From a virus (Duplodnaviria > Heunggongvirae > Uroviricota > Caudoviricetes), in the IMG/VR virus record IMGVR_UViG_2698536618_000022, positions 1 through 12,119 of that record: a stretch of 12,119 nucleotides of DNA; one strand, given 5' to 3'. Position numbers and translations under genes: made by a program. The notes beneath the pieces are model-generated. The model was not told where the DNA came from and searched no databases. It saw nothing but the letters and a program-made list of their open reading frames with translations. Positions 1 through 12,119 of the stretch are shown one piece after another. How positions within the stretch are numbered: the first letter of the stretch is position 1; each line of letters opens with the position of its first letter.

Positions 1-1248
1 ATGGCACTGAATATTCCATTCAGAAATGCGTACTATCGTTTTGCATCCAGTTACTCATTTCTCTTTTTTATTTCCTGGTCGCTGTGGTGGTCGTTATACG
101 CTATTTGGCTGAAAGGACATCTAGGGTTGACAGGGACGGAATTAGGTACACTTTATTCGGTCAACCAGTTTACCAGCATTCTATTTATGATGTTCTACGG
201 CATCGTTCAGGATAAACTCGGTCTGAAGAAACCGCTCATCTGGTGTATGAGTTTCATCCTGGTCTTGACCGGACCGTTTATGATTTACGTTTATGAACCG
301 TTACTGCAAAGCAATTTTTCTGTAGGTCTAATTCTGGGGGCGCTATTTTTTGGCTTGGGGTATCTGGCGGGATGCGGTTTGCTTGATAGCTTCACCGAAA
401 AAATGGCGCGAAATTTTCATTTCGAATATGGAACAGCGCGCGCCTGGGGATCTTTTGGCTATGCTATTGGCGCGTTCTTTGCCGGCATATTTTTTAGTAT
501 CAGTCCCCATATCAACTTCTGGTTGGTCTCGCTATTTGGCGCTGTATTTATGATGATCAACATGTGTTTTAAAGATAAGGATCACCAGTGCGTAGCGGCG
601 GATGCGGGAGGGGTAAAAAAAGAGGATTTTATCGCAGTTTTCAAGGATCGAAACTTCTGGGTTTTCGTCATATTTATTGTGGGGACGTGGTCTTTCTATA
701 ACATTTTTGATCAACAACTTTTTCCTGTCTTTTATGCAGGTTTATTCGAATCACACGATGTAGGAACGCGCCTGTATGGTTATCTCAACTCATTCCAGGT
801 GGTACTCGAAGCGCTATGCATGGCGATTATTCCTTTCTTTGTGAATCGGGTAGGGCCAAAAAATGCATTACTTATCGGTGTTGTGATTATGGCGTTGCGT
901 ATCCTTTCCTGCGCGCTGTTCGTTAACCCCTGGATTATTTCATTAGTGAAGCTGTTACATGCTATTGAGGTTCCACTTTGTGTCATATCCGTCTTCAAAT
1001 ACAGCGTGGCAAATTTTGATAAGCGCCTGTCGTCGACGATCTTTCTGATTGGTTTTCAAATTGCCAGTTCGCTTGGGATTGTGCTGCTTTCAACGCCGAC
1101 TGGGATACTCTTTGACCACGCAGGCTACCAGACAGTTTTCTTCGCAATTTCGGGTATTGTCTGCCTGATGTTGCTATTTGGCATTTTCTTCCTGAGTAAA
1201 AAACGCGAGCAAATAGTTATGGAAACGCCTGTACCTTCAGCAATATAG
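1..1248 (+). CDS. cscB: sucrose:H+ symporter, MFS oligosaccharide/H+ symporter family (LacY-like)
   Basis: 415-aa ORF beginning at window position 1; polytopic hydrophobic profile typical of a 12-TM MFS permease; N-terminus MALNIPFRNAYYRF... matches my recollection of E. coli CscB; family-level similarity to LacY. Confidence 0.85.
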   Translation: MALNIPFRNAYYRFASSYSFLFFISWSLWWSLYAIWLKGHLGLTGTELGTLYSVNQFTSILFMMFYGIVQDKLGLKKPLIWCMSFILVLTGPFMIYVYEPLLQSNFSVGLILGALFFGLGYLAGCGLLDSFTEKMARNFHFEYGTARAWGSFGYAIGAFFAGIFFSISPHINFWLVSLFGAVFMMINMCFKDKDHQCVAADAGGVKKEDFIAVFKDRNFWVFVIFIVGTWSFYNIFDQQLFPVFYAGLFESHDVGTRLYGYLNSFQVVLEALCMAIIPFFVNRVGPKNALLIGVVIMALRILSCALFVNPWIISLVKLLHAIEVPLCVISVFKYSVANFDKRLSSTIFLIGFQIASSLGIVLLSTPTGILFDHAGYQTVFFAISGIVCLMLLFGIFFLSKKREQIVMETPVPSAI

Positions 1249-1688
1249 ACGTAAACTTTTCCGGTTGTTGTCGATATCTCCCTATCCCTCAACCGGAAAA
1301 TAATAATACTAAAGTGCTTAGCCCTGCTAATAATCACCTAATCCAAACGCCTCATTCATGTTCTGGTACAGTCGCTCAAATGTACTTCAGATGCGCGGTT
1401 CGCTGATTTCCAGGACATTGTCGTCATTCAGCGACCTGTCCCGTGTATCACGGTCCTGCGAATTCATCAAGGAATGCATTGCGGAGTGAAGTATCGAGTC
1501 ACGCCATATTTCGCTATCAGGATTCTGTGTGATGGTTACATCGCCCGGCCCAGGGCTGTTTAGTCATCAGCGCTTTCTGACAGTGCTGAGATTTCAACCT
1601 GTTGCAGTAAAAATGAGTAGATATAAGGCAAGTGTGCTGCCAAACCTATCTTTTACGGGGTGAAGGTAGATTTCGTTTGAAGGGTATC

Positions 1689-1735
1689 TGGTGTCCCCTG
1701 CAGACATCTACTTGAAGCTGCAGGGGATTGATTGG
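1689..1735 (-). other. prophage attachment site core (attR-type junction): 15-nt identity to 3' end of tRNA-Arg (CTGCAGGGGACACCA) preceded by a degenerate T-arm-like copy
   Basis: plus strand 1689-1703 tggtgtcccctgcag is the reverse complement of the argW 3' end as I recall it; upstream on the minus strand TGCAG..CTGCA resembles a diverged T-stem; located 75 bp from the excisionase gene. Confidence 0.6.
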
Positions 1736-1776
1736 AATGGTGTTTTTTAGATGTGAGAAATATTTTACCCGCTATT

Positions 1777-1977
1777 TTACCCATTGGCGCGGCTTAAGAG
1801 CTTATTTTTGAATTCACAATGGTCACGATATAACCATCTTGCTCGCCCGTGGATAACTTTGGCTTTAGGCAGGTCGCCGGACTTAATCCGGTCATAGATG
1901 AAGGTTTTACCGAAGCCAGTATCGGCCATGATGAATTTCAAATCAACCAGTGAATCAGGTTGTAGTTCGTGTTGCAT
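1777..1977 (-). CDS. torI: excisionase / TorR inhibitor TorI (AlpA/Xis-family winged-helix DNA-binding protein)
   Basis: 66-aa ORF MQHELQPDSLVDLKFIMADTGFGKTFIYDRIKSGDLPKAKVIHGRARW...; matches remembered KplE1 TorI; AlpA-like helix-turn-helix core; GGAG SD about 10 nt upstream of the ATG. Confidence 0.85.
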   Translation of the reverse strand: MQHELQPDSLVDLKFIMADTGFGKTFIYDRIKSGDLPKAKVIHGRARWLYRDHCEFKNKLLSRANG

Positions 1978-2020
1978 GAGTGCTATCTCCGAATAGGGAA
2001 TCGAACCTGCAAATCAGGCA

Positions 2021-2042
2021 ATAAAAAACCGCCATCAGGCGG
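2021..2042 (-). terminator. rho-independent terminator (minus strand) downstream of the 55-aa ORF
   Basis: minus-strand hairpin CCGCC-TGAT-GGCGG followed by TTTTTTATT; the stop codon lies within the stem. Confidence 0.55.
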
Positions 2043-2202
2043 CTTGGTGTTCTTTCAGTTCTTCAATTCGAATATTGGTTACGTCTGCATGTGCTATCTG
2101 CGCCCATATCATCCAGTGGTCATAGCAGTCGTTGATGTCCTCTGCTTCGATAACCCTGTCGAATGGCTCTCCATTCCATTCACCTGTGACTCGGAAGTGC
2201 AT
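2035..2202 (-). CDS. hypothetical small protein (55 aa)
   Basis: ATG at 2200-2202 with GGAGA SD 6 nt upstream; below the 60-aa cutoff of the ORF track; flanked by terminators on both sides; MHFRVTGEWNGEPFDRVIEAEDINDCYDHWMIWAQIAHADVTNIRIEELKEHQAA. Confidence 0.5.
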   Translation of the reverse strand: MHFRVTGEWNGEPFDRVIEAEDINDCYDHWMIWAQIAHADVTNIRIEELKEHQAA

Positions 2203-2215
2203 TTATCATCTCCAT

Positions 2216-2239
2216 AAAACAAAACTCGCTGTAGCGAGT
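2216..2239 (-). terminator. rho-independent terminator (minus strand) between the ASCH gene and the 55-aa ORF
   Basis: minus-strand hairpin ACTCGC-TACA-GCGAGT followed by TTTTGTTTT. Confidence 0.55.
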
Positions 2240-2274
2240 TCAGATAAAAGAAATCCCCGCGAGTGCGAGGATTG

Positions 2275-2559
2275 TTATTCATTGCCGATATTCACTTTTA
2301 TCGCGAACACCTTTACCGGTTTATCACCGAAGTGCGGATGTGTGATTGTCTTGATTTCATATCCACCATACGGAACATCAATTCTGCGACTGGAATCGTC
2401 GCGCTTCGGATATCCCTTTGTGATAATCAGGCGGTCATACTTACGGTTAACGAGGCGCTTATTCCAGTAGTCATTACACAGGCGATACTCTTCCGTTTTA
2501 TCTCCGCGAATCATGGCATCGAAGTATTCACCTTTGACGGCAAGTTGTAGGTTAGCCAC
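2275..2559 (-). CDS. ASCH-domain protein (PUA-like beta-barrel), GTG start
   Basis: 94-aa ORF; GDKTEEYR fits the ASCH GxKxxExR signature; AGGAGG SD 6 nt upstream of the GTG; start overlaps the stop of the upstream Ea22-like gene. Confidence 0.65.
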   Translation of the reverse strand: MANLQLAVKGEYFDAMIRGDKTEEYRLCNDYWNKRLVNRKYDRLIITKGYPKRDDSSRRIDVPYGGYEIKTITHPHFGDKPVKVFAIKVNIGNE

Positions 2560-3574
2560 GGTTAACCTCCTGAGGCGGTTCTGGTAGAGGCATCCAGTGG
2601 GTTACATTGCTAATCAGACCATATTCATTAGTTTGAGGATGGTTGCCGCTATCGTCTCCGTATTTAAGACTCTCCATAAAGCCATAATGCCTATCCCCAT
2701 TAACGCTCACAAAGCCGTAATAAGCTGGTATAACGCCGATCTCACACGTAATCAGCAAAGGAAAACTAGTTCTCCAATTTAGCTCGCCGATTACAGGCAT
2801 TCTCTCACTACAGCTTATCCAACCATCCTTAATGCAATTACCTTGACTCTGAAGCATAGCGGCACGACAGGCGTTCCAGCCTCTCACCTCTGCAATAGCG
2901 GCAACAGCATCAACCGCGTACATGCTAAGAGGGTTAGGCATTGGTTTTTCTTCCGGTACTACTGGCGATGGCTGTTTGGCTTCTAAATCAGCAATTCTGT
3001 CAACCACGGCATCGACAGCATCTGAAAAACCGAACCAGTTACTCCACTCCGGCCTATCCCCGGTTGCTGCAAAATACATATCAGCCAAAGCAGCCTCAGC
3101 ATGGTCACGCTCGTTGATGAGTTGCTCTTCGCTTTTCTCCAGTTCAGCAATACGCTTACTCCCATCCGAGATAACGCCTTCGTAATACTCACGCTGCTCG
3201 TTGAGTTTTGATTTTGTCTCCTCAAGCTCAACACGCAGTTTCCCTACCGTTAGCGCAATATCCTCGTTCTCCTGGTCGCGGCGTTTGATGTATTGCTGGT
3301 TTCTTTCCCGTTCATCCAGCAGTGCCAGCACAATAGCCGGATTGGCTGCAGCGATGAATTCAGCATTGGCCTGCTGTTCCATTTGGAAATCTTCATCGAA
3401 ACCGCTTTCTGGATGCGCTCCTTCAATTCTGCAAATGGGAATATATCCAGCAACTTCACGATGAATTAGCGCATCATCACCATCAAATCGGCTCTCTCCA
3501 TATTCGAGCGACCACTCACCACACGTTGCTTTTTCTGCCGCTTCACGCAGTGCCTGATAGTCAATCTTGCTCAC
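2552..3574 (-). CDS. Ea22-like early protein: N-terminal Ead domain, central coiled coil, C-terminal DUF551-like domain
   Basis: 340-aa ORF; N-terminus MSKIDYQALREAAEKATCGEW and motif IAAANPAIVLALLDE are typical of lambda Ea22-family proteins; GTG start with GGAG SD. Confidence 0.75.
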   Translation of the reverse strand: MSKIDYQALREAAEKATCGEWSLEYGESRFDGDDALIHREVAGYIPICRIEGAHPESGFDEDFQMEQQANAEFIAAANPAIVLALLDERERNQQYIKRRDQENEDIALTVGKLRVELEETKSKLNEQREYYEGVISDGSKRIAELEKSEEQLINERDHAEAALADMYFAATGDRPEWSNWFGFSDAVDAVVDRIADLEAKQPSPVVPEEKPMPNPLSMYAVDAVAAIAEVRGWNACRAAMLQSQGNCIKDGWISCSERMPVIGELNWRTSFPLLITCEIGVIPAYYGFVSVNGDRHYGFMESLKYGDDSGNHPQTNEYGLISNVTHWMPLPEPPQEVNRG

Positions 3575-3815
3575 TGGTTGACTCCTGCTTCTCTGCCTTC
3601 AACACCATGCGAGAACCATCATCCAGCCCCCACGCGATCTCACCACCTTCAGCCATGACCAGTCGCCACACCAATTGAGCAGCCTCATTGGTAACATCAC
3701 GACCTGGATCATTGCCAACGCGCATACATCCACCTTCAACATCGCGCATTTTTGCCAGCATGATAGTTTTTGATAGCGGTGAAAAACCAAGCTGTAGTCG
3801 TGCTGAATTACTCAC
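3561..3815 (-). CDS. hypothetical protein (84 aa), GTG start
   Basis: ORF with GGAGG SD upstream of the GTG; start region ggaggcaaccaGTGag is near-identical to that of the Ea22-like gene; overlaps neighbouring genes as in coupled phage operons. Confidence 0.5.
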   Translation of the reverse strand: MSNSARLQLGFSPLSKTIMLAKMRDVEGGCMRVGNDPGRDVTNEAAQLVWRLVMAEGGEIAWGLDDGSRMVLKAEKQESTSEQD

Positions 3816-4119
3816 TGGTTGCCTCCTTTGCTGGGCTTTCTAACTTCTGAGTGGTTGTATCAAACTCAAACAACTTAACCACGTCATCAAACAGGACATA
3901 ATCGCCATCAGAATCTTCAGTCATGTCAGCGCCACAATCCTGACCGAACGAGTCACAACCATCCATATCAAGCTCGTATCGCTTGAGTTTTGCGATATTT
4001 GATAAATTCAGCGCCAGTACAGCAAGGTCATAAACCTCATCAGCGGTATACCCGGCACCATGCCCATACATTTCAATACGGGATATGATTTCTTCTACAC
4101 GTTGTTTTGTGATCGTCAT
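3808..4119 (-). CDS. hypothetical protein (103 aa), acidic C-terminal half
   Basis: ATG with GGAAGGTGAG SD; ATGA start/stop overlap with the upstream gene. Confidence 0.6.
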   Translation of the reverse strand: MTITKQRVEEIISRIEMYGHGAGYTADEVYDLAVLALNLSNIAKLKRYELDMDGCDSFGQDCGADMTEDSDGDYVLFDDVVKLFEFDTTTQKLESPAKEATSE

Positions 4120-4598
4120 TTTTGCTCACCTTCCTGTTCTTCCAGAAAAATACGCATAGCCTCAAGCATCTCTTCGGTGTCATACGGTGGCAACTTGTCA
4201 CGCAGGATGTGTTCAATGCTGTTAATGAACTTGCGGATTGCTTTGCGTTCAATTTCAGCCAGGAAAGCGTCGGTGGCTGGGGTTTCCGTGAAGTTGTCCT
4301 CCCAACCGTAGTACTCCTGACGACAGAAGTTATTAAATTCCTTCTCCGACTGTTTAAGCTCCGCATTCTCTGCTGCCAGCGCCGAAAACTTCTCGTGTGC
4401 CAACTTAACAGCTGCATCAGCCTGCTTAATTGACTCAATCGCTTTCTGGTGGTCTTCGTACAGAGCCGAAATCTTGGCCTCCGCTTCAGCAAATTTACGC
4501 ACCAGATATTCAGCGTTTGTTTCGTTAACCTTTAAATCATTTGGGATGCATTTACCTTTCAGAAATCCATCCATCTCAATTAGTGACATTTGTTTCAT
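4116..4598 (-). CDS. hypothetical coiled-coil protein (about 160 aa from the ATG at 4598; track ORF extends to a GTG at 4616)
   Basis: long helical, heptad-like sequence ([47 protein letters not shown]); ATG at 4596-4598 overlaps the stop of the upstream ORF (ATGA). Confidence 0.6.
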
Positions 4599-4759
4599 TT
4601 CTTCCCACTCCGCCACATCGCATTCAGATATTTGTTTTGATTCACTGACGGAAAAGAATTTCTCTTAAGCAATTCCTCTCTCGATGGCATTGGCTTTACG
4701 CGTTGGCGAATAATCATTTCTGCCGGAAGAATGCCGGGATTGTATGCAAGTCCTCTCAT
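4595..4759 (-). CDS. hypothetical small protein (54 aa)
   Basis: ATG at 4757-4759 preceded by GAGGAA SD at 7 nt; the longer track ORF (to 4912) overlaps the neighbouring gene out of frame and is probably an artefact. Confidence 0.4.
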
Positions 4760-4769
4760 GGTAAATTCC

Positions 4770-5066
4770 TCAGTCATTACTGATAGCGCCATAGCGTGAG
4801 CGGTAATTACGCAGGCGCGGGTCGATATATTCAGGGAAGTGGGTATATGTGGCTTTGCGGAATGGTCGGATTGATGTCTGGTAAATTCGCTCGCGTTCTT
4901 CTTTCTCTGCAAGCCATATACAGTGGCGAAATTCCTTTTCCTCTTTTGTTTCCTGCGGTAGCGACATTATCCGGTCGTAGTTTTTTCTGAATTTATCCAG
5001 CACCTCCGATACGGAATTGCCGGAACAGCGGCGCGGGTCATCCGCACCATACAGAGGCGCTGGCAT
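4770..5066 (-). CDS. hypothetical basic protein (98 aa)
   Basis: ATG with AAGGAT SD; occupies the position directly distal to the ssb/erf recombination module. Confidence 0.55.
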
Positions 5067-5089
5067 AATGGAATCCTTATTTTGCTACT

Positions 5090-5473
5090 TTAGAAGGGAA
5101 TTGAATCGTCGTATTCAGGAGTGTTCTGCTGGTTACTACTTTGCTGCTGCGGGCCATTTCCTGAAGTTGCAAATCCAATCTTTGCATTCAGTAATTCAAG
5201 AGTGATTGATTGACCATTTTGCCCCTGATAAACATCAACCCTGATGTTTTCTCCGGTAATTTCCACAATGCCACCTTCAACAAGAACACTACGGTAGTAA
5301 TCAGCTTGCGCTCCCGGCTTGGCAAATACAACGGCGCTGTAGTTTGTCCATTCTTTCTTTTTTGTCTGGCGGTCGTAATACTGAACGCCAGCACGGATAT
5401 TGAATCCGATATTTTCACCGGCCTGAAACTCTCTTGCGGGTTTGTTTAGTCTTACTGTAATCGAATGTGCCAT
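5090..5473 (-). CDS. ssb: single-stranded DNA-binding protein-like (OB fold, C-terminal tail ...PEYDDSIPF)
   Basis: 127 aa from MAHSITV; C-terminal DDSIPF resembles the E. coli SSB tip DDDIPF; Gly/Gln-rich linker before the tail; start overlaps the erf stop (TAATG). Confidence 0.65.
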   Translation of the reverse strand: MAHSITVRLNKPAREFQAGENIGFNIRAGVQYYDRQTKKKEWTNYSAVVFAKPGAQADYYRSVLVEGGIVEITGENIRVDVYQGQNGQSITLELLNAKIGFATSGNGPQQQSSNQQNTPEYDDSIPF

Positions 5474-6078
5474 TAAGCTATTGCCCCTTCTAATTCGTCT
5501 CGTCTGATGTTGTAAACGTCCTGCGCTTTGTGCTGCTCCGGTGTGCCTTCGAGCATCTTCCATGCTTTGGCGAACGCCTGTTTAAGCTCTTCTACGGTGT
5601 TTTTCTGCATTGCTGCGTCAGTGAATGCTTTTAGAACCTGTTCAGGTGTAGGTAATGGTTTTGATTGCTTTGCTGCTGCGTTCTGCTGATGTTTATGCTC
5701 GTCTGTATCTGCATCTTTCGCATCATCAATGCCGAACAAACCATTGAGGCAATACTTTCGTGCATAAGAGCTTGTAGCTCCCGTAACTTGTGCAGAATCC
5801 ATTCCTTTCTTGCTTTCTTCCTCTCGTGCAAGAGCGGTTGCCGTATGACTGTTTTCGCCATCGGTAATAGTTGCCGTGGCTTTCACGTAATACCGATCAC
5901 CAATCAACACAACTTCATCGCTGATTGATAAAAACAGACCATTCAGTAGCGGCTTAACGCTTTCAAGAATATCTTCGCAGCTTCTGTATTTATATTTACC
6001 GAATGAGTTGTACTGATTTTTGGGCGCATTCAGATTCTCCTGAATGGCTGCCAGTCTTGCGTAAAATTCTTTGCTCAT
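5473..6078 (-). CDS. erf: Erf-family single-strand annealing recombinase (P22 essential recombination function)
   Basis: MSKEFYARLAAIQENLNAPKNQYNSFGKYKYRSCEDILE... matches remembered P22 Erf; start taken at the ATG at 6076-6078 (the track ORF starts at an upstream TTG at 6108). Confidence 0.85.
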   Translation of the reverse strand: MSKEFYARLAAIQENLNAPKNQYNSFGKYKYRSCEDILESVKPLLNGLFLSISDEVVLIGDRYYVKATATITDGENSHTATALAREEESKKGMDSAQVTGATSSYARKYCLNGLFGIDDAKDADTDEHKHQQNAAAKQSKPLPTPEQVLKAFTDAAMQKNTVEELKQAFAKAWKMLEGTPEQHKAQDVYNIRRDELEGAIA

Positions 6079-6179
6079 ATGTTTGTTCTCAGAATGGACA
6101 CGGCCCAAGGAAATAACGCTGGTTTAATACTTCGACTCGTGACAAATTAAGGCATACCCGCATTCCTTCGCGGTCGCCA

Positions 6180-6338
6180 TTATGGCGATACCAGAGAGCT
6201 TTCTGCGTGTACATGCGTCTCTGTAACTTGCTCTCCTTCACTGTGGTTGCAAGTGACATAAATATCTCCTTCGTTACCGATTAATTCTTTCATCTGACGA
6301 ATGAATTCTTCGTCTGACCAGTTATCTGTAAAACTCAT
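6180..6338 (-). CDS. small protein (52 aa) in the position of P22 arf (between erf and kil)
   Basis: ORF MSFTDNWSDEEFIRQMKELIGNEGDIYVTCNHSEGEQVTETHVHAESSLVSP; ATG overlaps the kil stop (ATGA); assignment by position only. Confidence 0.4.
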   Translation of the reverse strand: MSFTDNWSDEEFIRQMKELIGNEGDIYVTCNHSEGEQVTETHVHAESSLVSP

Positions 6339-6457
6339 TTCCTGCGATACCATGGAAGGTTGATAGCTGATTTCATCGCTTTATTTGCTTCAAGCCACAT
6401 TTTGGAATCACCAATAAATCTGGCTATTACTGCTTTGTTCTGTGCTGCACGAAGCAT
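6335..6457 (-). CDS. kil: Kil-like host-killing/cell-division inhibitor peptide (40 aa)
   Basis: MLRAAQNKAVIARFIGDSKMWLEANKAMKSAINLPWYRRK; the FIGD-x-KM motif resembles lambda Kil as I recall it; sits immediately downstream of cIII as in lambda and P22. Confidence 0.5.
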   Translation of the reverse strand: MLRAAQNKAVIARFIGDSKMWLEANKAMKSAINLPWYRRK

Positions 6458-6471
6458 CTGGTGATTGATGG

Positions 6472-6606
6472 CTATTTCATTGCGCATAACGCCTCCAGTT
6501 GTTTCTTTGCTGCTCTGATTAATTGTTTAACTCGGCGTGATAATTCAGATTCGTGCGGGTAGAAAGCGGACATGACGCCGCTACCCGCGAGCTGAAAGTG
6601 CATCAT
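6472..6606 (-). CDS. cIII: CIII-like regulator (FtsH/HflB inhibitor that stabilises CII)
   Basis: start taken at MMHFQLAGSGVMSAFYPHESELSRRVKQLIRAAKKQLEAL with AAGGAG SD 6 nt upstream; this aligns with the lambda CIII core as I recall it (...IAGWPVAGCPSESLLERITRKLRDGWKRL). Confidence 0.7.
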   Translation of the reverse strand: MMHFQLAGSGVMSAFYPHESELSRRVKQLIRAAKKQLEALCAMK

Positions 6607-6681
6607 GGGTAACTCCTTATATTTGATTGCATAACGAAAATGCCTCTCGTGAAGCATTATTGGTATGCGGTAAAGCCGCGC

Positions 6682-7050
6682 TCAGGCGGCTTTGATAGTC
6701 ATATCATCTGAATCAAATATTCCAGATGTGTCGATATCGGTAATTCTTATTCCTTCGCTACCATCCATTGGAGGCCATCCTTCCTGACCATTTCCATCAT
6801 TCCAGTCGAACTCACACACAACACCATATGCATTTAAGTCGCTTGAAATTGCTATAAGCAGAGCATGTTGCGCTAGCATGATTAATACAGCATTTAATAC
6901 AGAGCCGTGTTTTTTGAGTCTGTATTCAGAGTCTGACCAGAAATTATTAATCTGGTGAAGTTTTTCCTCTGTCATTACGTCATGGTCGATTTCAATTTCT
7001 ATTGATGCTTTCCAGTCGTAATCAATGATGTATTTTTTGATGTTTGACAT
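6682..7050 (-). CDS. hypothetical protein (122 aa)
   Basis: ATG with GAGGA SD; preceded on its transcript by a strong intrinsic terminator. Confidence 0.6.
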   Translation of the reverse strand: MSNIKKYIIDYDWKASIEIEIDHDVMTEEKLHQINNFWSDSEYRLKKHGSVLNAVLIMLAQHALLIAISSDLNAYGVVCEFDWNDGNGQEGWPPMDGSEGIRITDIDTSGIFDSDDMTIKAA

Positions 7051-7068
7051 CTGTTCATATCCTCATAG

Positions 7069-7098
7069 ATAAAAAATTGCCCTCACATCGGAGGGCAA
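7069..7098 (-). terminator. rho-independent terminator (minus strand)
   Basis: minus-strand hairpin TTGCCCTC-CGATGT-GAGGGCAA followed by TTTTTTAT. Confidence 0.65.
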
Positions 7099-7243
7099 AG
7101 AAGATTTCCAATAATCAGAACAAGTCGGCTCCTGTTTAGTTACGAGCGACATTGCTCACATAGCAGACTCGTAAATCTGCTATAGGCGCTTATTCGCACC
7201 GCATGACAACATCAAATTTTTCGAGATTACTTTGTCGCAACAA

Positions 7244-7348
7244 TCACTCTTCTACGCGGTCAGCTTTTCTATAATTATCAAATTCGAAATGTTTAATTAC
7301 TTCTTTCGTTTCTCGCTCTATAACTTCAACGATGTATTTCTTATTCAT
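7244..7348 (-). CDS. hypothetical small protein (34 aa)
   Basis: ATG overlaps the stop of the upstream Ead-like gene (TAATG); MNKKYIVEVIERETKEVIKHFEFDNYRKADRVEE; no independent SD, coupling only. Confidence 0.3.
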   Translation of the reverse strand: MNKKYIVEVIERETKEVIKHFEFDNYRKADRVEE

Positions 7349-7644
7349 TACTCATCACCTATGGCTTTTTTGATAGCTTCGAGAGCCTTATTAACAGCTC
7401 CATACCATTCTGGATATGTTGTCGTTGTTCTATTTTTGGATTGCTTAAGTAATAACTGAAGTGCTTCGAGAAGGTCAGGTGCTGCCGCTATTAGATTGGC
7501 ATCTTCAATACATTGAACTTCCTCACAGATTGCAATATACGAACGCCAGCCTGCGCCATTTTCAAGTGAGTCTGCCTGGATGATTTTAATCTCATTGCCA
7601 TCCATCATTATTTCCCACTTACCTTCAGTACCTTTAAATTCCAT
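7348..7644 (-). CDS. small Ead/Ea22-motif protein, paralog A (98 aa)
   Basis: contains IAAAPDLLEALQ and KALEAIKKAIG motifs shared with the ORF at 8285-8545 and with the Ea22-like N-terminal domain; SD AGAGG inside a repeated 30-bp linker. Confidence 0.65.
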   Translation of the reverse strand: MEFKGTEGKWEIMMDGNEIKIIQADSLENGAGWRSYIAICEEVQCIEDANLIAAAPDLLEALQLLLKQSKNRTTTTYPEWYGAVNKALEAIKKAIGDE

Positions 7645-7649
7645 GTTAG

Positions 7650-7679
7650 CCTCTGTTGTTTATGCCAAAAATAAAGGCC
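7650..7679. repeat. 30-bp direct repeat DR2, copy 1 (cctctgttgtttatgccaaaaataaaggcc); second copy at 8551-8580
   Basis: identical 30-mer read directly at both sites, each immediately upstream of an Ead-like paralog and adjoining a terminator-like hairpin. Confidence 0.85.
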
Positions 7680-7683
7680 ACCA

Positions 7684-7884
7684 TCAGGCAGCCTTGTTAT
7701 TCTGTTTACCAAGTTCTCTGGCAATCATTGCCGTCGTTCGCATTGCCCATTTATCGACATATTTCCCATCCTCCATTACAGGAAACATTTCTTCAGGCTT
7801 AACCATGCATTCCGATTGCAGCTTGCATCCATTGCATCGTTTGAATTGTCCACACCATTGATTTGTATCAATAGTCGTAGTCAT
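7684..7884 (-). CDS. ral: Ral-like restriction-alleviation protein (66 aa)
   Basis: MTTTIDTNQWCGQFKRCNGCKLQSECMVKPEEMFPVMEDGKYVDKW... matches my memory of lambda Ral, including length 66 aa; Cys cluster; AGGA SD. Confidence 0.7.
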   Translation of the reverse strand: MTTTIDTNQWCGQFKRCNGCKLQSECMVKPEEMFPVMEDGKYVDKWAMRTTAMIARELGKQNNKAA

Positions 7885-7954
7885 ACGGATAATCCTGGTA
7901 TTGTTCCATCACATCCTGCGGATGCTCTTCGAACTCTTCAAATTCTTCTTCCAT
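7868..7954 (-). CDS. small acidic ORF (28 aa), positional equivalent of lambda orf28
   Basis: ATG with GAGGTG SD 4 nt upstream inside a repeated linker; MEEEFEEFEEHPQDVMEQYQDYPYDYDY; 3' end overlaps the ral start. Confidence 0.4.
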   Translation of the reverse strand: MEEEFEEFEEHPQDVMEQYQDYPYDYDY

Positions 7955-7979
7955 ATATCACCTCAAATAAGTGGTTTGC
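7948..7979. repeat. 32-bp direct repeat DR1, copy 1 (cttccatatatcacctcaaataagtggtttgc); second copy at 8900-8931
   Basis: identical 32-mer at both sites; each carries the SD and start codon (ATGGAAG) of the downstream minus-strand gene; copy 2 also contains the last codons of N. Confidence 0.85.
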
Positions 7980-8009
7980 CGCGAAAAAGTAAAACAAGGA
8001 TACTCACTT

Positions 8010-8276
8010 CTATTTGTCATCGTGTAAGCGACGCAGGTTATTAACTCGCGGCCAGTAATATTTTGGCTTGGCACGAGATCCGGGTCTTGGACCTACACAA
8101 ACTATATAGCTCTCTTCTTTCCTCGGAAGGCCAGGTGCATCTAGCAGACGGCCTAGTTCGAATTTTTTTACGTTGACACCAGGAGGAATCACCTCGACGA
8201 TAAACCCGATTTTTACCTTCGTTACACCGTTTGATGAGCTTGACCATTTAACTTCATCGTTCAATTTGAACTTCAT
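8010..8276 (-). CDS. hypothetical basic protein (88 aa from the ATG at 8276; track ORF starts at a TTG at 8288)
   Basis: ORF with GAGG SD; Lys/Arg-rich (MKFKLNDEVKW...PRPGSRAKPKYYWPRVNNLRRLHDDK). Confidence 0.55.
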   Translation of the reverse strand: MKFKLNDEVKWSSSSNGVTKVKIGFIVEVIPPGVNVKKFELGRLLDAPGLPRKEESYIVCVGPRPGSRAKPKYYWPRVNNLRRLHDDK

Positions 8277-8284
8277 CATTAACC

Positions 8285-8545
8285 TCAATCGTAATAATCT
8301 TCACCAATAGCTTTGCTAATTGCTGACAGTGCTTTCGATACTTCATCAGGATAATGGTCATTCCAGCTTTGCTTGTATGCCTTGTTTAGCATCGCTTGCA
8401 GAGCTTCAAGCAAATCAGGAGCTGCCTCCATCAATCTCAAATCACCACGATGTATGGTTGTATCGTCAAACGTGACATAAACACCATCATCGTTGAATCC
8501 AGTGCCAACAACACTCCACGGCCTTTTCATTCTTTCTACGGTCAT
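8285..8545 (-). CDS. small Ead/Ea22-motif protein, paralog B (86 aa from the ATG at 8545; the track ORF starts at a GTG at 8551)
   Basis: shares MEAAPDLLEALQ and KALSAISKAIG motifs with paralog A; preceded by DR2 copy 2. Confidence 0.6.
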   Translation of the reverse strand: MTVERMKRPWSVVGTGFNDDGVYVTFDDTTIHRGDLRLMEAAPDLLEALQAMLNKAYKQSWNDHYPDEVSKALSAISKAIGEDYYD

Positions 8546-8550
8546 ATCCA

Positions 8551-8580
8551 CCTCTGTTGTTTATGCCAAAAATAAAGGCC
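8551..8580. repeat. 30-bp direct repeat DR2, copy 2
   Basis: identical to 7650-7679; followed by the minus-strand hairpin GGCCGC-ATAA-TCGGCC with a T-rich tail (terminator-like). Confidence 0.85.
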
Positions 8581-8582
8581 GA

Positions 8583-8906
8583 TTATGCGGCCTTATCTAC
8601 ATTCCTGAACCAAACGCAGATCGGACCGTCTTCTGTATCGTGAATCGAACCGACAAACCATCCTTCTCCATCTGGCATGCTTGGCTCCCATCCACTGATG
8701 TTTGGATTCCCATCTTCAAAATACGCGTCAATTACCGTTTGATTGTTGTCGTTTCCCATTTCAACAATTGATGATTCAATGCCATGCTGCTTGCAGAAAG
8801 ATCTGAACTCATCAGCTGAAATTACCTCTCTATCCCCAAACAGGTTGGCGTATTCTGGGTGCGTCCAGTAGCCATCCTCGCTTCGCTCTACTACTAATGC
8901 TTCCAT
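8583..8906 (-). CDS. strongly acidic hypothetical protein (107 aa)
   Basis: ATG with GAGGTG SD inside DR1 copy 2; by my count 22 Asp+Glu versus 6 Arg+Lys; first gene after N. Confidence 0.65.
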   Translation of the reverse strand: MEALVVERSEDGYWTHPEYANLFGDREVISADEFRSFCKQHGIESSIVEMGNDNNQTVIDAYFEDGNPNISGWEPSMPDGEGWFVGSIHDTEDGPICVWFRNVDKAA

Positions 8907-8931
8907 ATATCACCTCAAATAAGTGGTTTGC
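8900..8931. repeat. 32-bp direct repeat DR1, copy 2
   Basis: identical to 7948-7979; overlaps the 3' end of N and the start of the acidic ORF. Confidence 0.85.
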
Positions 8932-9214
8932 TGCCTAATTTCATTTTCTGGCGACCAACACAAGTCACACCCATTTCACTGCGTGGCTTGCGGTAGTAAA
9001 TACGGTTCTGTTTACTCTCGACTTCTTCTGCCTTCTTACAGCGAAGGCTTCCGAGTGATGCTGCTTTATCTGCTCTGACGCAACCAGAGAGCTTTAGCGC
9101 AATTTTTCGCGCCAGTCGCTGCTCTTGCATTGCCTGTTCACGTTGAGCCTGTCTGCGTGCTCTGCGGCGATTTCTGGCGTTATCGTCAGCCAGATATGTA
9201 ATGACTACTGTCAT
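8915..9214 (-). CDS. N: N-type transcription antitermination protein (phage-21-like N)
   Basis: 99 aa from MTVVITYLADDNARNRRRARRQAQ (arginine-rich motif); C-terminus ...RIYYRKPRSEMGVTCVGRQKMKLGSKPLI resembles the lambda/phi21 N C-termini as I recall them; GGAGG SD; nutL lies upstream on the same transcript. Confidence 0.85.
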   Translation of the reverse strand: MTVVITYLADDNARNRRRARRQAQREQAMQEQRLARKIALKLSGCVRADKAASLGSLRCKKAEEVESKQNRIYYRKPRSEMGVTCVGRQKMKLGSKPLI

Positions 9215-9254
9215 GTTGACCTCCGGGTAGGTGCACATCCTTTTGTGTCGATGA

Positions 9255-9374
9255 TTATTTGTTTTTGCGTTGCCACATCCAGTCATCTACTTCAGACCAG
9301 ATAGTGAAACCGAAGCCGATGGCGAATGTGTTAACTAAACCACCGAGAATTGGGTTGGTCATGATGTCTAACAT
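9255..9374 (-). CDS. small hydrophobic ORF (39 aa) in the N leader
   Basis: ATG preceded by TGAGGA SD at about 7 nt; MLDIMTNPILGGLVNTFAIGFGFTIWSEVDDWMWQRKNK has one predicted TM segment; not in the ORF track (under 60 aa). Confidence 0.4.
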   Translation of the reverse strand: MLDIMTNPILGGLVNTFAIGFGFTIWSEVDDWMWQRKNK

Positions 9375-9546
9375 TTTCTGTTCCTCAGATGATTAGCTTT
9401 GGTGGTGTGGTAGGTGGGAGACCCATTTCGACCCGCTTCGTCCGACTTCAATTCGGCAATAGTCCCGCAGGCCTCGCCGCTTTACGTGCGACATATTCCC
9501 GTCCATGAACCCTTCACCACACCCCAAAGCCAACTACTCTTTGGTT

Positions 9547-9587
9547 CCCGCATTTCGGCGGGACAATCCCATCAATGTTAAAGAGCC
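9547..9587 (-). promoter_or_regulatory. nutL (boxA GGCTCTTTAACA, boxB hairpin CCCGCCGAAATGCGGG)
   Basis: boxA-like element followed 13 nt later by a hairpin identical to the boxB at nutR; located between PL and N on the minus strand. Confidence 0.75.
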
Positions 9588-9624
9588 TGCCAATCTGTTC
9601 CGTTTGGCTACCAGCGTCCTGCTG

Positions 9625-9715
9625 ATGGCTTAAATTTAAGATCTCTTTAATTAATGGTCAAGAGTATTTTTGAAGAAAACTTAAATTTTCTTTCGTAACT
9701 TAAGTTTGGCTTTGA
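9625..9715 (-). promoter_or_regulatory. PL promoter with OL operators (P22-type 18-bp operators)
   Basis: minus-strand -35 TTGACC (9656-9661), 17-bp spacer, -10 TAAATT (9633-9638); operator ATTTAAGATCTCTTTAAT at 9634-9651 plus two degenerate copies near 9679-9696 and 9698-9715. Confidence 0.6.
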
Positions 9716-9730
9716 TTTTTAAAGGAAATA

Positions 9731-9752
9731 AAAAAAAGGGGCGAATGCCCCC
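9731..9752 (-). terminator. rho-independent terminator immediately downstream of the repressor gene
   Basis: minus-strand hairpin GGGGC-ATTC-GCCCC followed by TTTTTTTTATTTCC. Confidence 0.7.
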
Positions 9753-10403
9753 TTATGGAAGGTTTGCTAGTTTTGCATCGACAACTACGCCGATGATTTT
9801 GCAGTTTCCGTTGATCTCGATCATCGGATATTGTGGGTTAAGTGGTTTTAGAAACTTCCTGCCTGCATCAATAACTAACTTCTTGAAAGTTGCCTCGTTT
9901 TCTCCTTCGAGCTTTGCAACTACCAGTTTCCCGTTACGCGGCTCTACTTCAGGATCGACGAGTATTATCATTCCTTCAGGGATACTGAGACCGGCCGGAG
10001 CCGTCATTGAGTCTCCCTTCACGTCCAACCAAAACGAATCTTCTGAACAGTCTACGGTTGTATCGTACCAGTTATCTATTGCACGCTTATGATATGGTTC
10101 CACAGCTTCCATCCAGCATCCTGCGCTCACCCAGCTAATCAGAGGGTATGACCCTCTTGGATCATGCCTACTGTGATAGGCAATGTTTGAAAGACTTTCC
10201 TCTCCTTTCATCAGATAGTCAGGGGAACACTTCAACGCATTAGCCAGGGCGAGAAGATTCTCTCCATTTGGCTCTGTCTCAGAGCGTTCCCACTGAGATA
10301 TGGCAACATTAGACACGCCGACCATCTTTCCAAGTGCGGCCTGCCTGATCTTGAGTTCTTTTCTCCGAGCGCGAATGCGCTCTCCCATCAATTGAGTTTT
10401 CAT
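9753..10403 (-). CDS. c2: CI-type prophage repressor, P22 C2-like (HTH plus LexA-like S24 autopeptidase domain)
   Basis: 216 aa; MKTQLMGERIRARRKELKIRQAALGKMVGVSNVAISQWERSETEPNGENLLALANAL... matches remembered P22 C2; GDSM serine motif and VVAKL lysine of the S24 catalytic dyad. Confidence 0.95.
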   Translation of the reverse strand: MKTQLMGERIRARRKELKIRQAALGKMVGVSNVAISQWERSETEPNGENLLALANALKCSPDYLMKGEESLSNIAYHSRHDPRGSYPLISWVSAGCWMEAVEPYHKRAIDNWYDTTVDCSEDSFWLDVKGDSMTAPAGLSIPEGMIILVDPEVEPRNGKLVVAKLEGENEATFKKLVIDAGRKFLKPLNPQYPMIEINGNCKIIGVVVDAKLANLP

Positions 10404-10483
10404 AGTTAAGACATCTTAAATAAACTTGACTTAAGATTCCTTTAGTGGATAATTTAAGTGTTCTTTAATTTCGGAGCGAGTCT
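10404..10483. promoter_or_regulatory. OR region: three P22-type operators, with PR rightward and PRM leftward
   Basis: 18-bp operators AGTTAAGACATCTTAAAT (10404-10421), ACTTAAGATTCCTTTAGT (10429-10446), ATTTAAGTGTTCTTTAAT (10452-10469); PR -35 TTGACT (10426-10431) and -10 GATAAT (10448-10453). Confidence 0.8.
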
Positions 10484-10669
10484 ATGTACAAGAAAGATGT
10501 TATCGACCACTTCGGAACCCAGCGTGCTGTAGCTAAAGCGTTAGGCATTAGCGACGCAGCAGTCTCTCAGTGGAAGGAAGTCATCCCAGAGAAAGACGCC
10601 TATCGACTGGAAGTCGTTACAGCTGGCGCCCTGAAGTATCAAGAAAGCGCTTACCGCAAAGCGGCATAA
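10484..10669 (+). CDS. cro: Cro repressor (P22-type)
   Basis: 61 aa MYKKDVIDHFGTQRAVAKALGISDAAVSQWKEVIPEKDAYRLEVVTAGALKYQESAYRKAA; first gene of the PR transcript; GGAG SD. Confidence 0.9.
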   Translation: MYKKDVIDHFGTQRAVAKALGISDAAVSQWKEVIPEKDAYRLEVVTAGALKYQESAYRKAA

Positions 10670-10675
10670 GCAAAT

Positions 10676-10720
10676 TGCTCTTTAACAGTCATGGTCCTCA
10701 TTCCCGCCGAAATGCGGGAA
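10676..10720 (+). promoter_or_regulatory. nutR (boxA TGCTCTTTAACA, boxB hairpin TTCCCGCCGAAATGCGGGAA)
   Basis: boxA 10676-10687; boxB stem-loop 10701-10720, same sequence as the nutL boxB on the opposite strand. Confidence 0.8.
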
Positions 10721-10726
10721 TACAAC

Positions 10727-10761
10727 GCGCATAAGTTGATGCGCATAACTTCTTATTTGTT
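10727..10761 (+). terminator. tR1-like terminator between nutR and cII
   Basis: hairpin GCGCAT-AAGTTG-ATGCGC followed by the T-rich ATAACTTCTTATTTGTT. Confidence 0.4.
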
Positions 10762-10777
10762 AAGGAAATACTTACAT

Positions 10778-11071
10778 ATGGAACTTACAAGTACTCGCAA
10801 GAAAGCGAATGCAATTACAAGCAACATCCTGAATCGAATTGCTGTACGTGGTCAGCGAAAGGTTGCCGACGCGTTAGGGATTAATGAATCGCAAATTTCG
10901 CGATGGAAAGACAGCTTCATCCCCAAAATGGGAATGCTTCTTGCTGTTCTTGAATGGGGTGTCGTCGACGACGACATGGCTCGATTGGCACGACAAGTTG
11001 CTTCGATTCTCACCAATAAAAAACGCCCGGCGGCAACCGAGCGTTCTGAACAAATCCAGATGGAATTCTGA
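10778..11071 (+). CDS. cII: CII transcriptional activator (mosaic: P22 c1-like N-terminus, lambda cII-like C-terminus)
   Basis: 97 aa from MELTSTRKKANAI... with AAGGAAA SD; C-terminal ...MLLAVLEWGVVDDDMARLARQVASILTNKKRPAATERSEQIQMEF is nearly identical to lambda CII as I recall it; the upstream in-frame extension in the ORF track is spurious (overlaps nutR). Confidence 0.85.
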   Translation: MELTSTRKKANAITSNILNRIAVRGQRKVADALGINESQISRWKDSFIPKMGMLLAVLEWGVVDDDMARLARQVASILTNKKRPAATERSEQIQMEF

Positions 11072-11103
11072 GGGAATTACTGGATCAATCCACAGGAGTC
11101 ATT

Positions 11104-12042
11104 ATGACAAATACAGCAAAAATACTCAACTTCGGCAGAGGTAACTTTGCCGAACAGGAGCGTAATGTGGCAGATCTCGATGATGGTTACGCCAGACTAT
11201 CAAATATGCTGATTGAGGCTTATTCAGGCGCAGATCTGACCAAGCGACAGTTTAAAGTGCTGCTTGCCATTCTGCGTAAAACCTATGGGTGGAATAAACC
11301 AATGGACAGAATCACCGATTCTCAACTTAGCGAGATTACAAAGTTACCCGTCAAACGGTGCAATGAAGCCAAGTTAGAACTCGTCAGAATGAATATTATC
11401 AAGCAGCAAGGCGGCATGTTTGGACCAAATAAAAACATCTCAGAATGGTGCATCCCTCAAAACGAGGGAGGTTCTCCTAAAATGAGGGACATCCCTCAAA
11501 ACGAGGGAAAATCCCCTAAAACGAGGGATAAAACATCCCTCAAATTAGGGGATTGCTATCCCTCAAAACAGGGGGACACAAAAGACACTATTACAAAAGA
11601 AAAAAGAAAAGATTATTCGTCCGAGAATTCTGGCGAATCCTCTGACCAGCCAGAAAACGATCTTTCTGTGGTTAAACCGGATGCTGCAATTCAGAGCGGC
11701 AGCAAGTGGGGAACAGCAGAAGACCTGACCGCCGCAGAGTGGATGTTTGACATGGTGAAGACCATCGCACCATCAGCCAGAAAACCGAATTTTGCAGGGT
11801 GGGCTAACGATATCCGCCTGATGCGTGAACGTGACGGACGTAACCACCGCGACATGTGCGTGCTGTTCCGCTGGGCATGCCAGGACAACTTCTGGTCCGG
11901 TAACGTGCTAAGTCCGGCCAAACTCCGCGACAAGTGGACCCAGCTCGAAATCAACCGTAACAAGCAACAGGCTGGCGTGACAGCTGGAAAACCAAAACTC
12001 GACCTGACAAACACTGACTGGATTTACGGGGTGGATTTATGA
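11104..12042 (+). CDS. O: replication initiator O (lambda O-like), containing the origin iterons
   Basis: 312 aa; MTNTAKILNFGRGNFAEQERNVADLDDGYARLSNMLIEAYSGADLTKRQFKVLLAILRKTYGWNKPMDRITDSQL... matches lambda O. Confidence 0.95.
   Translation: MTNTAKILNFGRGNFAEQERNVADLDDGYARLSNMLIEAYSGADLTKRQFKVLLAILRKTYGWNKPMDRITDSQLSEITKLPVKRCNEAKLELVRMNIIKQQGGMFGPNKNISEWCIPQNEGGSPKMRDIPQNEGKSPKTRDKTSLKLGDCYPSKQGDTKDTITKEKRKDYSSENSGESSDQPENDLSVVKPDAAIQSGSKWGTAEDLTAAEWMFDMVKTIAPSARKPNFAGWANDIRLMRERDGRNHRDMCVLFRWACQDNFWSGNVLSPAKLRDKWTQLEINRNKQQAGVTAGKPKLDLTNTDWIYGVDL
11451..11620 (+). repeat. ori-lambda-type replication origin inside O: iterons (ATCCCTCAAAACGAGGGA-like, about 6 copies) followed by an AT-rich unwinding region
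   Basis: repeats catccctcaaaacgaggga, ttctcctaaaatgagggac, atccctcaaaacgagggaa, atcccctaaaacgagggat, atccctcaaattaggggat, atccctcaaaacaggggga; then acaaaagacactattacaaaagaaaaaagaaaag. Confidence 0.85.
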
Positions 12043-12119
12043 AAAACATCGCCGCACAGATGGTTAACTTTGACCGTGAGCAGATGCGTCGGATCGCCAA
12101 CAACATGCCGGAACAGTAC
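12039..12119 (+). CDS. P: replication protein P (DnaB helicase loader), 5' partial; continues beyond the window
   Basis: ATG overlaps the O stop (ATGA); MKNIAAQMVNFDREQMRRIANNMPEQY matches the lambda P N-terminus. Confidence 0.85.
   Translation, partial: MKNIAAQMVNFDREQMRRIANNMPEQY

Follow-up and report, generated by a model that had tools for sequence, protein, structure and literature searches.

The stretch of tailed-phage DNA analysed here, which we call the window, is the whole of positions 1 to 12,119 of IMG/VR virus record IMGVR_UViG_2698536618_000022 and comes from a lambdoid prophage. Between its antiterminator gene N and cIII, two short direct repeats, DR1 (32 bp, CTTCCATATATCACCTCAAATAAGTGGTTTGC) and DR2 (30 bp, CCTCTGTTGTTTATGCCAAAAATAAAGGCC), alternate with small accessory genes that include orf28 and ral, and our comparisons with related phages indicate that these repeats are linkers at which such genes have been joined and probably exchanged. 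All genes of the interval lie on the minus strand, and in the order of transcription they are N, DR1b, p107, DR2b, p88, p92, a spacer, DR1a, orf28 plus ral, DR2a, p98, a 34-aa open reading frame (ORF), a DUF2528 gene and cIII (Table 1). By exact matching within the window the two copies of each repeat are 100% identical, and along the plus strand they follow one another as DR2-DR1-DR2-DR1, at the coordinates and in the interleaved order given in an earlier note written from the sequence alone. Neither pattern was matched in 200 dinucleotide-preserving shuffles of the window with up to 3 mismatches allowed.

Both repeats are positioned at gene or module borders, outside the bodies of genes: DR1 spans from the stop codon of N to codon 2 or 3 of the cassette, and DR2 from the cassette stop codon or hairpin to the Shine-Dalgarno sequence of the next gene. 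On the minus strand, DR1b contains the five final N codons (S K P L I), the TGA stop codon (8915-8917), a GAGG Shine-Dalgarno sequence and the ATG GAA of p107 (ATG at 8906); the earlier note had likewise read the end of N, a Shine-Dalgarno sequence and ATGGAAG there. DR1a supplies a Shine-Dalgarno sequence and ATG GAA to orf28 (ATG at 7954), and its "N tail" has no N gene upstream. Read on the same strand (GGCCTTTATTTTTGGCATAAACAACAGAGG), DR2 consists of the 3′ arm of a hairpin (GGCCTT) and a T-run, followed by the Shine-Dalgarno sequence of the next gene. The earlier note had assigned a terminator-like hairpin to DR2; the 3′ arm, T-run and Shine-Dalgarno sequence do lie inside the exact repeat, but the 5′ arm and loop lie outside it, differ between the two copies and overlap the stop codon of the cassette. 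In DR2b, the hairpin is followed by TATTTTT and then by GGCATAAACAACAGAGG, the Shine-Dalgarno region of p88, and the TAA stop codon of p107 is in the hairpin loop; in DR2a, a T-run and the p98 Shine-Dalgarno sequence follow, and the ral stop codon is inside the hairpin. Both hairpins incorporate the final codons of the cassette (K A A) along with its stop, and p107, which starts with ME and ends with KAA, has both of its ends encoded by linkers.

Table 1. Features of the N-to-cIII interval of the window, in order of transcription.
Feature	Position	Strand	Remarks
N antiterminator gene	8915-9214	-	99 aa from ATG 9214; ends ...KLGSKPLI
DR1b linker	8900-8931	-	Reads GCAAACCACTTATTTGAGGTGATATATGGAAG; exact repeat
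Cassette 1, p107	8583-8906	-	Acidic 107-aa protein; phrog_1372
DR2b linker and hairpin	8551-8594	-	Exact repeat 8551-8580; hairpin 8575-8594 (AAGGCCG-CATAAT-CGGCCTT)
p88	8285-8545 (or to 8551)	-	86/88 aa; phrog_1273 / PF27050
Joint "DR3"	8274-8297	-	TTATTACGATTGAGGTTAATGATG; 5′ boundary of p92 module, end of p88
p92	8010-8279	-	88/89 aa from ATG 8276/8279; phrog_11941
Spacer, 30 bp	7980-8009	-	Travels with p92; abuts N-tail relic / DR1a
DR1a linker	7948-7979	-	Same bases as DR1b, 5′ of orf28
Cassette 2, orf28 and ral	7684-7954	-	orf28 7868-7954; ral 7684-7884 (Pfam Ral, E 1e-47)
DR2a linker and hairpin	7650-7695	-	Exact repeat 7650-7679; hairpin 7674-7695 (AAGGCTGCC-TGAT-GGTGGCCTT)
p98	7348-7644	-	98 aa; second Y8K6-family paralog, phrog_1273 / PF27050
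DUF2528 gene (lambda ea10 homologue)	6682-7050	-	Pfam

The gene calls and the Pfam match to Ral agree with the two cassettes that the earlier note had named, the acidic 107-aa ORF and orf28 plus ral. Its formula for the repeated unit (DR1, cassette, DR2, paralog) describes the arrangement correctly as far as it goes, but it omits an extra gene in unit 1, p92, which proved to be central to how the doubled structure is explained below.

About 250 related loci were compared overall. Exact scans of IMG/VR located 87 stretches with DR2 and 97 with DR1. Of the 171 loci retrieved, 131 had one copy of each linker and none had two of both (at most 4 mismatches). DR2 lay 195 to 1031 bp from DR1, at 21 different spacings, most often 298 bp (orf28-ral, 45 loci) or 349 bp (p107, 16 loci). 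At least 11 unrelated classes of gene start at the DR1 ATG, and they include orf28, p107, a 140-149-aa membrane protein, proteins of 156, 83, 87 and 55 aa, a 63-aa DUF7167 protein and a six-codon remnant, MEAKAE. Since most of these cassettes begin with ME and many end with (K)AA, the joints must be situated within the genes, a few codons in from either end. When the 200-250 bp on each side of a linker were clustered, the flanks of DR2 fell into 18 upstream and 13 downstream classes that were found in 47 combinations among 169 sites, those of DR1 fell into 15 upstream and 11 downstream classes found in 49 combinations among 153 sites, and the conservation profile dropped at the linker edges. 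The sequences 3′ of DR2 included several divergent alleles of the Y8K6 gene, a lambda-type non-coding stretch and other genes, so DR2 is not merely the leader of one gene family, and both repeats are found as intergenic or gene-end linkers rather than within the coding sequence of a single family.

A second sample, which did not depend on the linkers, was chosen by the Ral protein alone and comprised 79 unique loci, with DR1 present in 61 (at most 2 mismatches) and DR2 in 71 (at most 4 mismatches). Similarity to the window ended 68 times at 7640-7679 and 79 times at 7960-7999, and not once within 7680-7959, the interval occupied by orf28 and ral. In agreement with this, most megablast matches of the 2-kb interval to phage records began at query positions 343-367, which correspond to DR2a, and 2G7b, PhiR11_1 and SfI were among the records that matched only 7642-7979/7986, that is, one cassette and its two linkers. 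The linkers are themselves polymorphic: within DR2, hairpin type (A or B) and Shine-Dalgarno end (GG or AT) occurred in all four combinations (30/24/41/24), and an internal T/G site in DR1 was combined with several upstream and several downstream flank classes. These polymorphisms are thus shuffled relative to both flanks, which is compatible with what exchange inside the linkers predicts.

The end-points in the Ral sample, the megablast ends and the flank classes therefore all place mosaic breakpoints at the linkers, and on the strength of these comparisons we regard DR1 and DR2 as mosaic joints of an accessory-gene hotspot. The earlier note's description of this interval as such a hotspot holds up well for the stretch from N to cIII: many different cassettes occur between DR1 and DR2, and lambda too has diverged versions of the linkers. 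Lambda, P22 and L have already made the N-ral-cIII region known as a hotspot.

Why the slot is double in this prophage can be explained from the other settings in which p92 and p88 occur. In four other loci of our set, p92 lies directly 3′ of N (L018, 4600-5000; L108, 1690-2090; L021, 4200-4700; L134, 7870-8400). Three different N alleles, that of lambda among them, share an alternative end before p92, ...GRQKQRGKSIPAYYD (QRGKSIPAYYD), as opposed to the ...KLGSKPLI of the window's N, and this end is followed by TGAGGTTAATGATG, p92, the same 30-bp spacer and DR1. This order implies that p92 arrived by inserting itself near the end of N, within its 3′ end, and hence that the "last N codons" in DR1a are the displaced remainder of N. 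The C-terminal end of N is, we note in passing, itself a swappable piece. The p88 of the window ends with ...AIGEDYYD by way of the DR3 joint, the same sequence that ends the alternative N elsewhere, whereas native p88 in E. coli genomes ends with ...ALGDE and is followed by other genes and not by p92.

Among 50,697 phage records and 5,426 complete E. coli genomes, 342 records and roughly 2,000 genomes matched, but none contained at least 80% of the 2-kb interval in one place; the p88/p92 junction was absent from both sets, and exact 29-mer scans for it in the GTDB species representatives and IMG/VR were empty. An exact-protein look-up placed p88 with the ...DYYD end on 23 contigs. One of them (CYGF01000003.1, of GCA_001285485.1) has 100% identity with the window, evidently as its source; the contig ends inside the region, so the comparison extends over 9,835 nt. 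A block of 611 bp (8595-7985; DR2-p88-p92-spacer), which in the window lies between the p107 and orf28-ral cassettes, is kept at 98-99% identity in five fully mapped relatives (L177, L179, L181, L182 and L183). The alternation of DR1-like with DR2-like sequences is seen twice over in L177/L178, L179 and L183, and L181 and L182 have a second DR1-like copy and no second DR2-like copy. Among the relatives with this block, slot 1 contains a 55-aa ORF, a 104-aa or 147-aa ORF or an empty site with the MEAKAE remnant, and slot 2 contains orf28-ral, a 156-aa ORF or a DUF7446 gene. In the "empty" slots (L181, 5918-5995; L184, 5359-5436), only a six-codon ORF, ATGGAAGCTAAGGCCGAATAG (MEAKAE), separates DR1 from DR2, and it looks like a p107-type cassette from which the interior has been deleted.

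The components of the doubled structure each occur separately in other phages at 95-99% identity. The single-slot forms L029 and L076 correspond to the window with one DR2-to-DR2 unit (7680-8550) taken out, and the commonest arrangement of all, found at no fewer than 23 loci, is N-DR1-orf28 with the N tail of the window, which corresponds to the window minus one DR1-to-DR1 unit. Judged from these sequence relationships, the doubled slot most likely arose by a heterologous, non-allelic join of two different phages and not by duplication in situ.

The linkers also appear to carry expression signals. A consensus scan found two terminator-like hairpins, one of 9 pairs at 7695-7674 and one of 7 pairs at 8594-8575, each followed by TATTTTTGG, with fold energies of -17 and -14.5 kcal/mol and z scores of -2.7 and -1.9. 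By pattern and folding, DR2 together with the arm upstream of it thus makes a G+C-rich stem-loop with a T-run, which has the form of an intrinsic terminator. For DR1, folding gave no significant structure, and no Rfam family matched either linker. The minus strand of 7650-9000 contained no promoter-like site, nor was there a sigma-70-like one in or near DR1, as far as a consensus scan can tell. In the two lambda records checked, no terminators are annotated around ral; the hairpin after lambda ral presumably corresponds to the published tL2 terminator cluster.

We put a probability of roughly 0.7 on the reading that DR1 and DR2 are boundary linkers of the pL operon that bound an accessory slot after N, that this slot was doubled by a non-allelic join, and that its cassettes are swapped at the linkers. 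The sequences themselves show the repeats and their anatomy, how varied the flanks are, where breakpoints fall and in what other settings p92, p88 and DR1 occur; the recombination pathway, the direction of events and the terminator activity that such a reading entails are inferred. In this reading DR1 is the 3′ end of N together with a translation-initiation region that gives a Shine-Dalgarno sequence, an ATG and usually a Glu codon to the next gene, and DR2 is the distal half of an intrinsic-terminator-like hairpin plus a U-tract and the Shine-Dalgarno sequence of the gene that follows, with the hairpin often providing the last codons, (K)AA, and the stop of the cassette. Because the linkers are almost unchanged across the lambdoid phages of E. 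coli, Shigella and Salmonella, crossovers could take place there between genomes with different sequences on either side. The exchange would be carried out by host RecA or by a phage annealing recombinase: this prophage encodes an Erf-type annealing protein, and Red-type phage recombinases recombine diverged phage DNA efficiently (PMC2327257). Such exchange would reassort N alleles, cassettes and downstream genes.

For the doubled slot, the p92 part of the block would have begun as the insertion into the 3′ end of N, which would explain why an N tail and DR1 trail behind it. Two phages would then have been joined non-allelically, the 3′ end of p88 in one to the alternative 3′ end of N in the other, and linker-mediated cassette swaps within that lineage would have followed. 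By analogy with lambda, N-modified pL transcripts would be expected to read through both candidate terminators in DR2, with each cassette translated from the start supplied by its linker.

Several points weigh against this reading. Most of the loci were picked by exact linker match, which inflates the apparent conservation and is only partly corrected by the Ral-anchored set, and recurrent mutation could also give four-gamete patterns. Beyond the enteric lambdoid pool, linkers and cassette degenerate together: a Pantoea homologue of p107 (62% identity) retains only GAGGTGAT-TATGGAAGC and a weaker hairpin, and the Hafnia copy lies in a different context and has no linkers. The predicted terminator role is supported by pattern and folding energy only, and the hairpin variants showed no compensatory base changes, their differences being one-sided or wobble only. 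Some joints of the region, such as the DR3 fusion, the edge between spacer and DR1 and the entry of each new cassette, have no sequence in common and so need illegitimate recombination, and the data would fit either direction, stacking of slots or deletion from a doubled ancestor.

Some of these same observations would be expected if the linkers were kept for function only, as terminator, ribosome-binding site and C-terminus of N, and if the joints were produced by random illegitimate recombination followed by selection. The joints at DR3 and the edges of the p92 spacer are free of homology, as is the one that leaves the MEAKAE mini-ORF after deletion of a cassette, the linkers decay in more distant hosts, and they do appear to hold expression signals. 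Function alone, however, does not call for 30-45 identical nucleotides, including the non-signal spacer GGCATAAACAACA, beside unrelated flanks in 47-49 combinations, nor does it account for the shuffling of linker polymorphisms relative to both flanks or for the existence of single-unit forms that run exactly from DR to DR, and we consider it unlikely. The proposal of the earlier note, that the DR1-cassette-DR2-paralog unit was duplicated in tandem within one lineage and one cassette then replaced, has in its favour that both units have the same architecture and end with a phrog_1273 paralog, that the linker copies are identical, and that tandem units headed by N are known in mEp213. Nevertheless, over the 64 residues that can be compared the amino-acid sequences of the two paralogs, p88 and p98, are only 41% identical, and apart from the linkers no repeated DNA turned up, so an old duplication would not have left linkers that are 100% identical unless they had been converted. 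Moreover, unit 1 has p92 in addition, joined on its upstream side to the 3′ end that belongs to an alternative allele of N, with the YYD ending; and phages with a single unit carry every component, and other phages either half by itself, at 95-99% identity. Duplication in situ is less likely than a heterologous, non-allelic join, and we think it quite improbable.

A dedicated site-specific system of the integron kind, with the DR2 hairpin as its recombination site, would resemble what is seen here formally, in that promoterless cassettes in one orientation each end with a conserved site that contains a hairpin, and the resemblance goes no further. No dedicated recombinase gene (tyrosine recombinase) adjoins the array in any listed locus with p88(...DYYD), the positions of the joints between cassette and linker vary by several bases, the hairpin and T-run have the form of an intrinsic terminator, and no Rfam family matches. 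The missing recombinase and the variable joints exclude an integron-type array in practice, and we give such a system almost no credence.

The reading we prefer, in which linkers bound a slot that was doubled by a non-allelic join, places the window close to systems described before. The boundary-sequence or linker model of lambdoid phages, for which Susskind & Botstein (1978), Botstein (1980) and Clark et al. (2001), the last on HK620, have been cited (PMC3029335), concerns short conserved sequences at module borders in the early region, with unrelated flanks, that are proposed to be recombination foci, and DR1 and DR2 behave in this way. They differ in that they reach into coding ends (ME... 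at one end and ...AA plus the stop at the other) and in that they occur twice in one genome, bounding two slots in series. Clark and colleagues are said to have found, in 2001, seven boundary sequences in the metabolic domain, among which DR1 or DR2 might already be; the window is a new and well-resolved instance of a phenomenon that is known in kind.

In lambda itself (N-sieB-orf28-ral-ea10), a DR1-like sequence, GCAATCCACTATTTAAGGTGATATATGGAAG, precedes orf28 and a DR2-like hairpin and T-run (...GCTGCCTGATAGTGGCCTTTATTTTTGGCATAAATAACAGAAT) follow ral, and ea10 corresponds to the DUF2528 gene of the window. Lambda has a single slot, however; sieB separates its N from the DR1-like sequence, and DR2 is not followed by a Y8K6 gene. 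In NC_001416 (L172, 1659-1700; lambda about 34358-34400), the DR1-like sequence 5′ of orf28 is preceded by TTTACTACCGCAA, a string that agrees with the ...IYYRK... codons which the N gene of the window has close to its 3′ end, and this suggests from sequence that lambda also holds a relic of the 3′ end of N, displaced by the insertion of sieB. The phage mEp213 (JQ182733) shares with the window two tandem N-proximal units in which joints resembling DR1 and DR2 accompany p107 and a gene of the Y8K6 type; it differs in that its second unit retains a whole N, whereas the window retains only the last N codons, as DR1a. It has two annotated N genes (L174, 3145-3417 and 4570-4902; the same phage as L097), each heading a unit, and is a second, independent case of stacked N-proximal units.

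Morons, reportedly described by Juhala et al. in 2000, are likewise small accessory genes of unrelated origin that lie between conserved phage genes and are followed by a terminator. The cassettes of the window use operon transcription and a start codon provided by the linker, and no promoter of their own was found in the minus-strand consensus scan; they are in-operon cassettes and not autonomous units of promoter, gene and terminator.

What is specific here is that two linkers which give cassettes their start and stop signals are defined to the base, together with the catalogue of the cassettes between them, the origin of DR1a as a displaced end of N, and the stacking of two slots in series within one lineage. 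The window illustrates at base resolution how small accessory genes located after N are exchanged among lambdoid phages (Ral here, Nmad5 or SieB in relatives), with linkers that reach into the coding ends of cassettes and slots that can be stacked, and it leaves the current picture of phage mosaicism unchanged. In practical terms, DR1 and DR2 provide sequence handles for cataloguing early genes with candidate anti-defence or exclusion functions across thousands of prophages. A bolder possibility, which we hold only tentatively and think rather unlikely, is that the pL operon of enteric lambdoid phages contains an expandable, recombinase-independent cassette array, whose linkers are kept near-identical by second-order selection for annealing recombinases and whose slots can be stacked. 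If so, any ORF placed between the linkers would be expressed, with a start and Shine-Dalgarno sequence at one end and a stop and terminator at the other, and genes for exclusion or counter-defence would build up in the stacked slots, such as Ral in the window and Nmad5, Gad1 and SieB at the equivalent places of other phages.

In the loci L175 (2780-3403), L176 (2794-3417) and L179 (7834-8808), relatives have a nucleotide-modification gene of the Nmad5 family in the slot between N and the DR2-p88 joint, and another has a Gad1 (anti-Gabija) gene, placed between the Y8K6 gene and cIII. The presence of Nmad5 and Gad1 fits a role of the region in defence and counter-defence.

Farther along the operon there is another terminator-like hairpin (7077-7098, minus strand), upstream of the DUF2528/ea10 gene. 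Strong clusters of similarity end-points were also seen at 7060-7079 (36) and 7140-7159 (68), with more at 6620-6699, and the regions 7060-7160 and 6613-6692 are probably further boundary sequences of the same operon.

The earlier note had labelled p88 and p98 "Ead-like", a label that does not survive comparison with profiles. Both match phrog_1273 (E 3e-31 for p98 and 2e-18 for p88), both are listed with PF27050 (Phage_P22_Y8K6) in the precomputed annotation of contig CYGF01000003.1, and they belong to this family. Neither had a PF13935 hit at E ≤ 0.01, BLASTP against the window's own Ead/Ea22 protein gave E values of 0.4-0.7, and hhalign gave a probability of 1.4%, which came from a 19-residue ANxxIAAAP motif alone. 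The paralogs have a motif, ANxxLIAAAPDLLEAL (7494-7540 and 8395-8440), that is also found in the Ead/Ea22 + DUF551 protein of the window (340 aa, 2552-3574; ANAEFIAAANPAIVLAL, at residues 66-85 in its N-terminal part), and this shared motif may have prompted the label.

Searches of NCBIfam, Pfam and PDB sequences gave no match for p107, p92 or the Y8K6 proteins, and the same searches with five further cassette proteins gave nothing except DUF7167, for the 63-aa cassette. AlphaFold produced a confident model of p107, a conserved early protein (predicted local distance difference test score, pLDDT, 84; predicted template modelling score, pTM, 0.70), for which no fold match was found in the PDB. 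The protein has 35 homologues in Enterobacterales, with invariant W14, H16 and W73 and a GWFxGSIHDTEDG motif.

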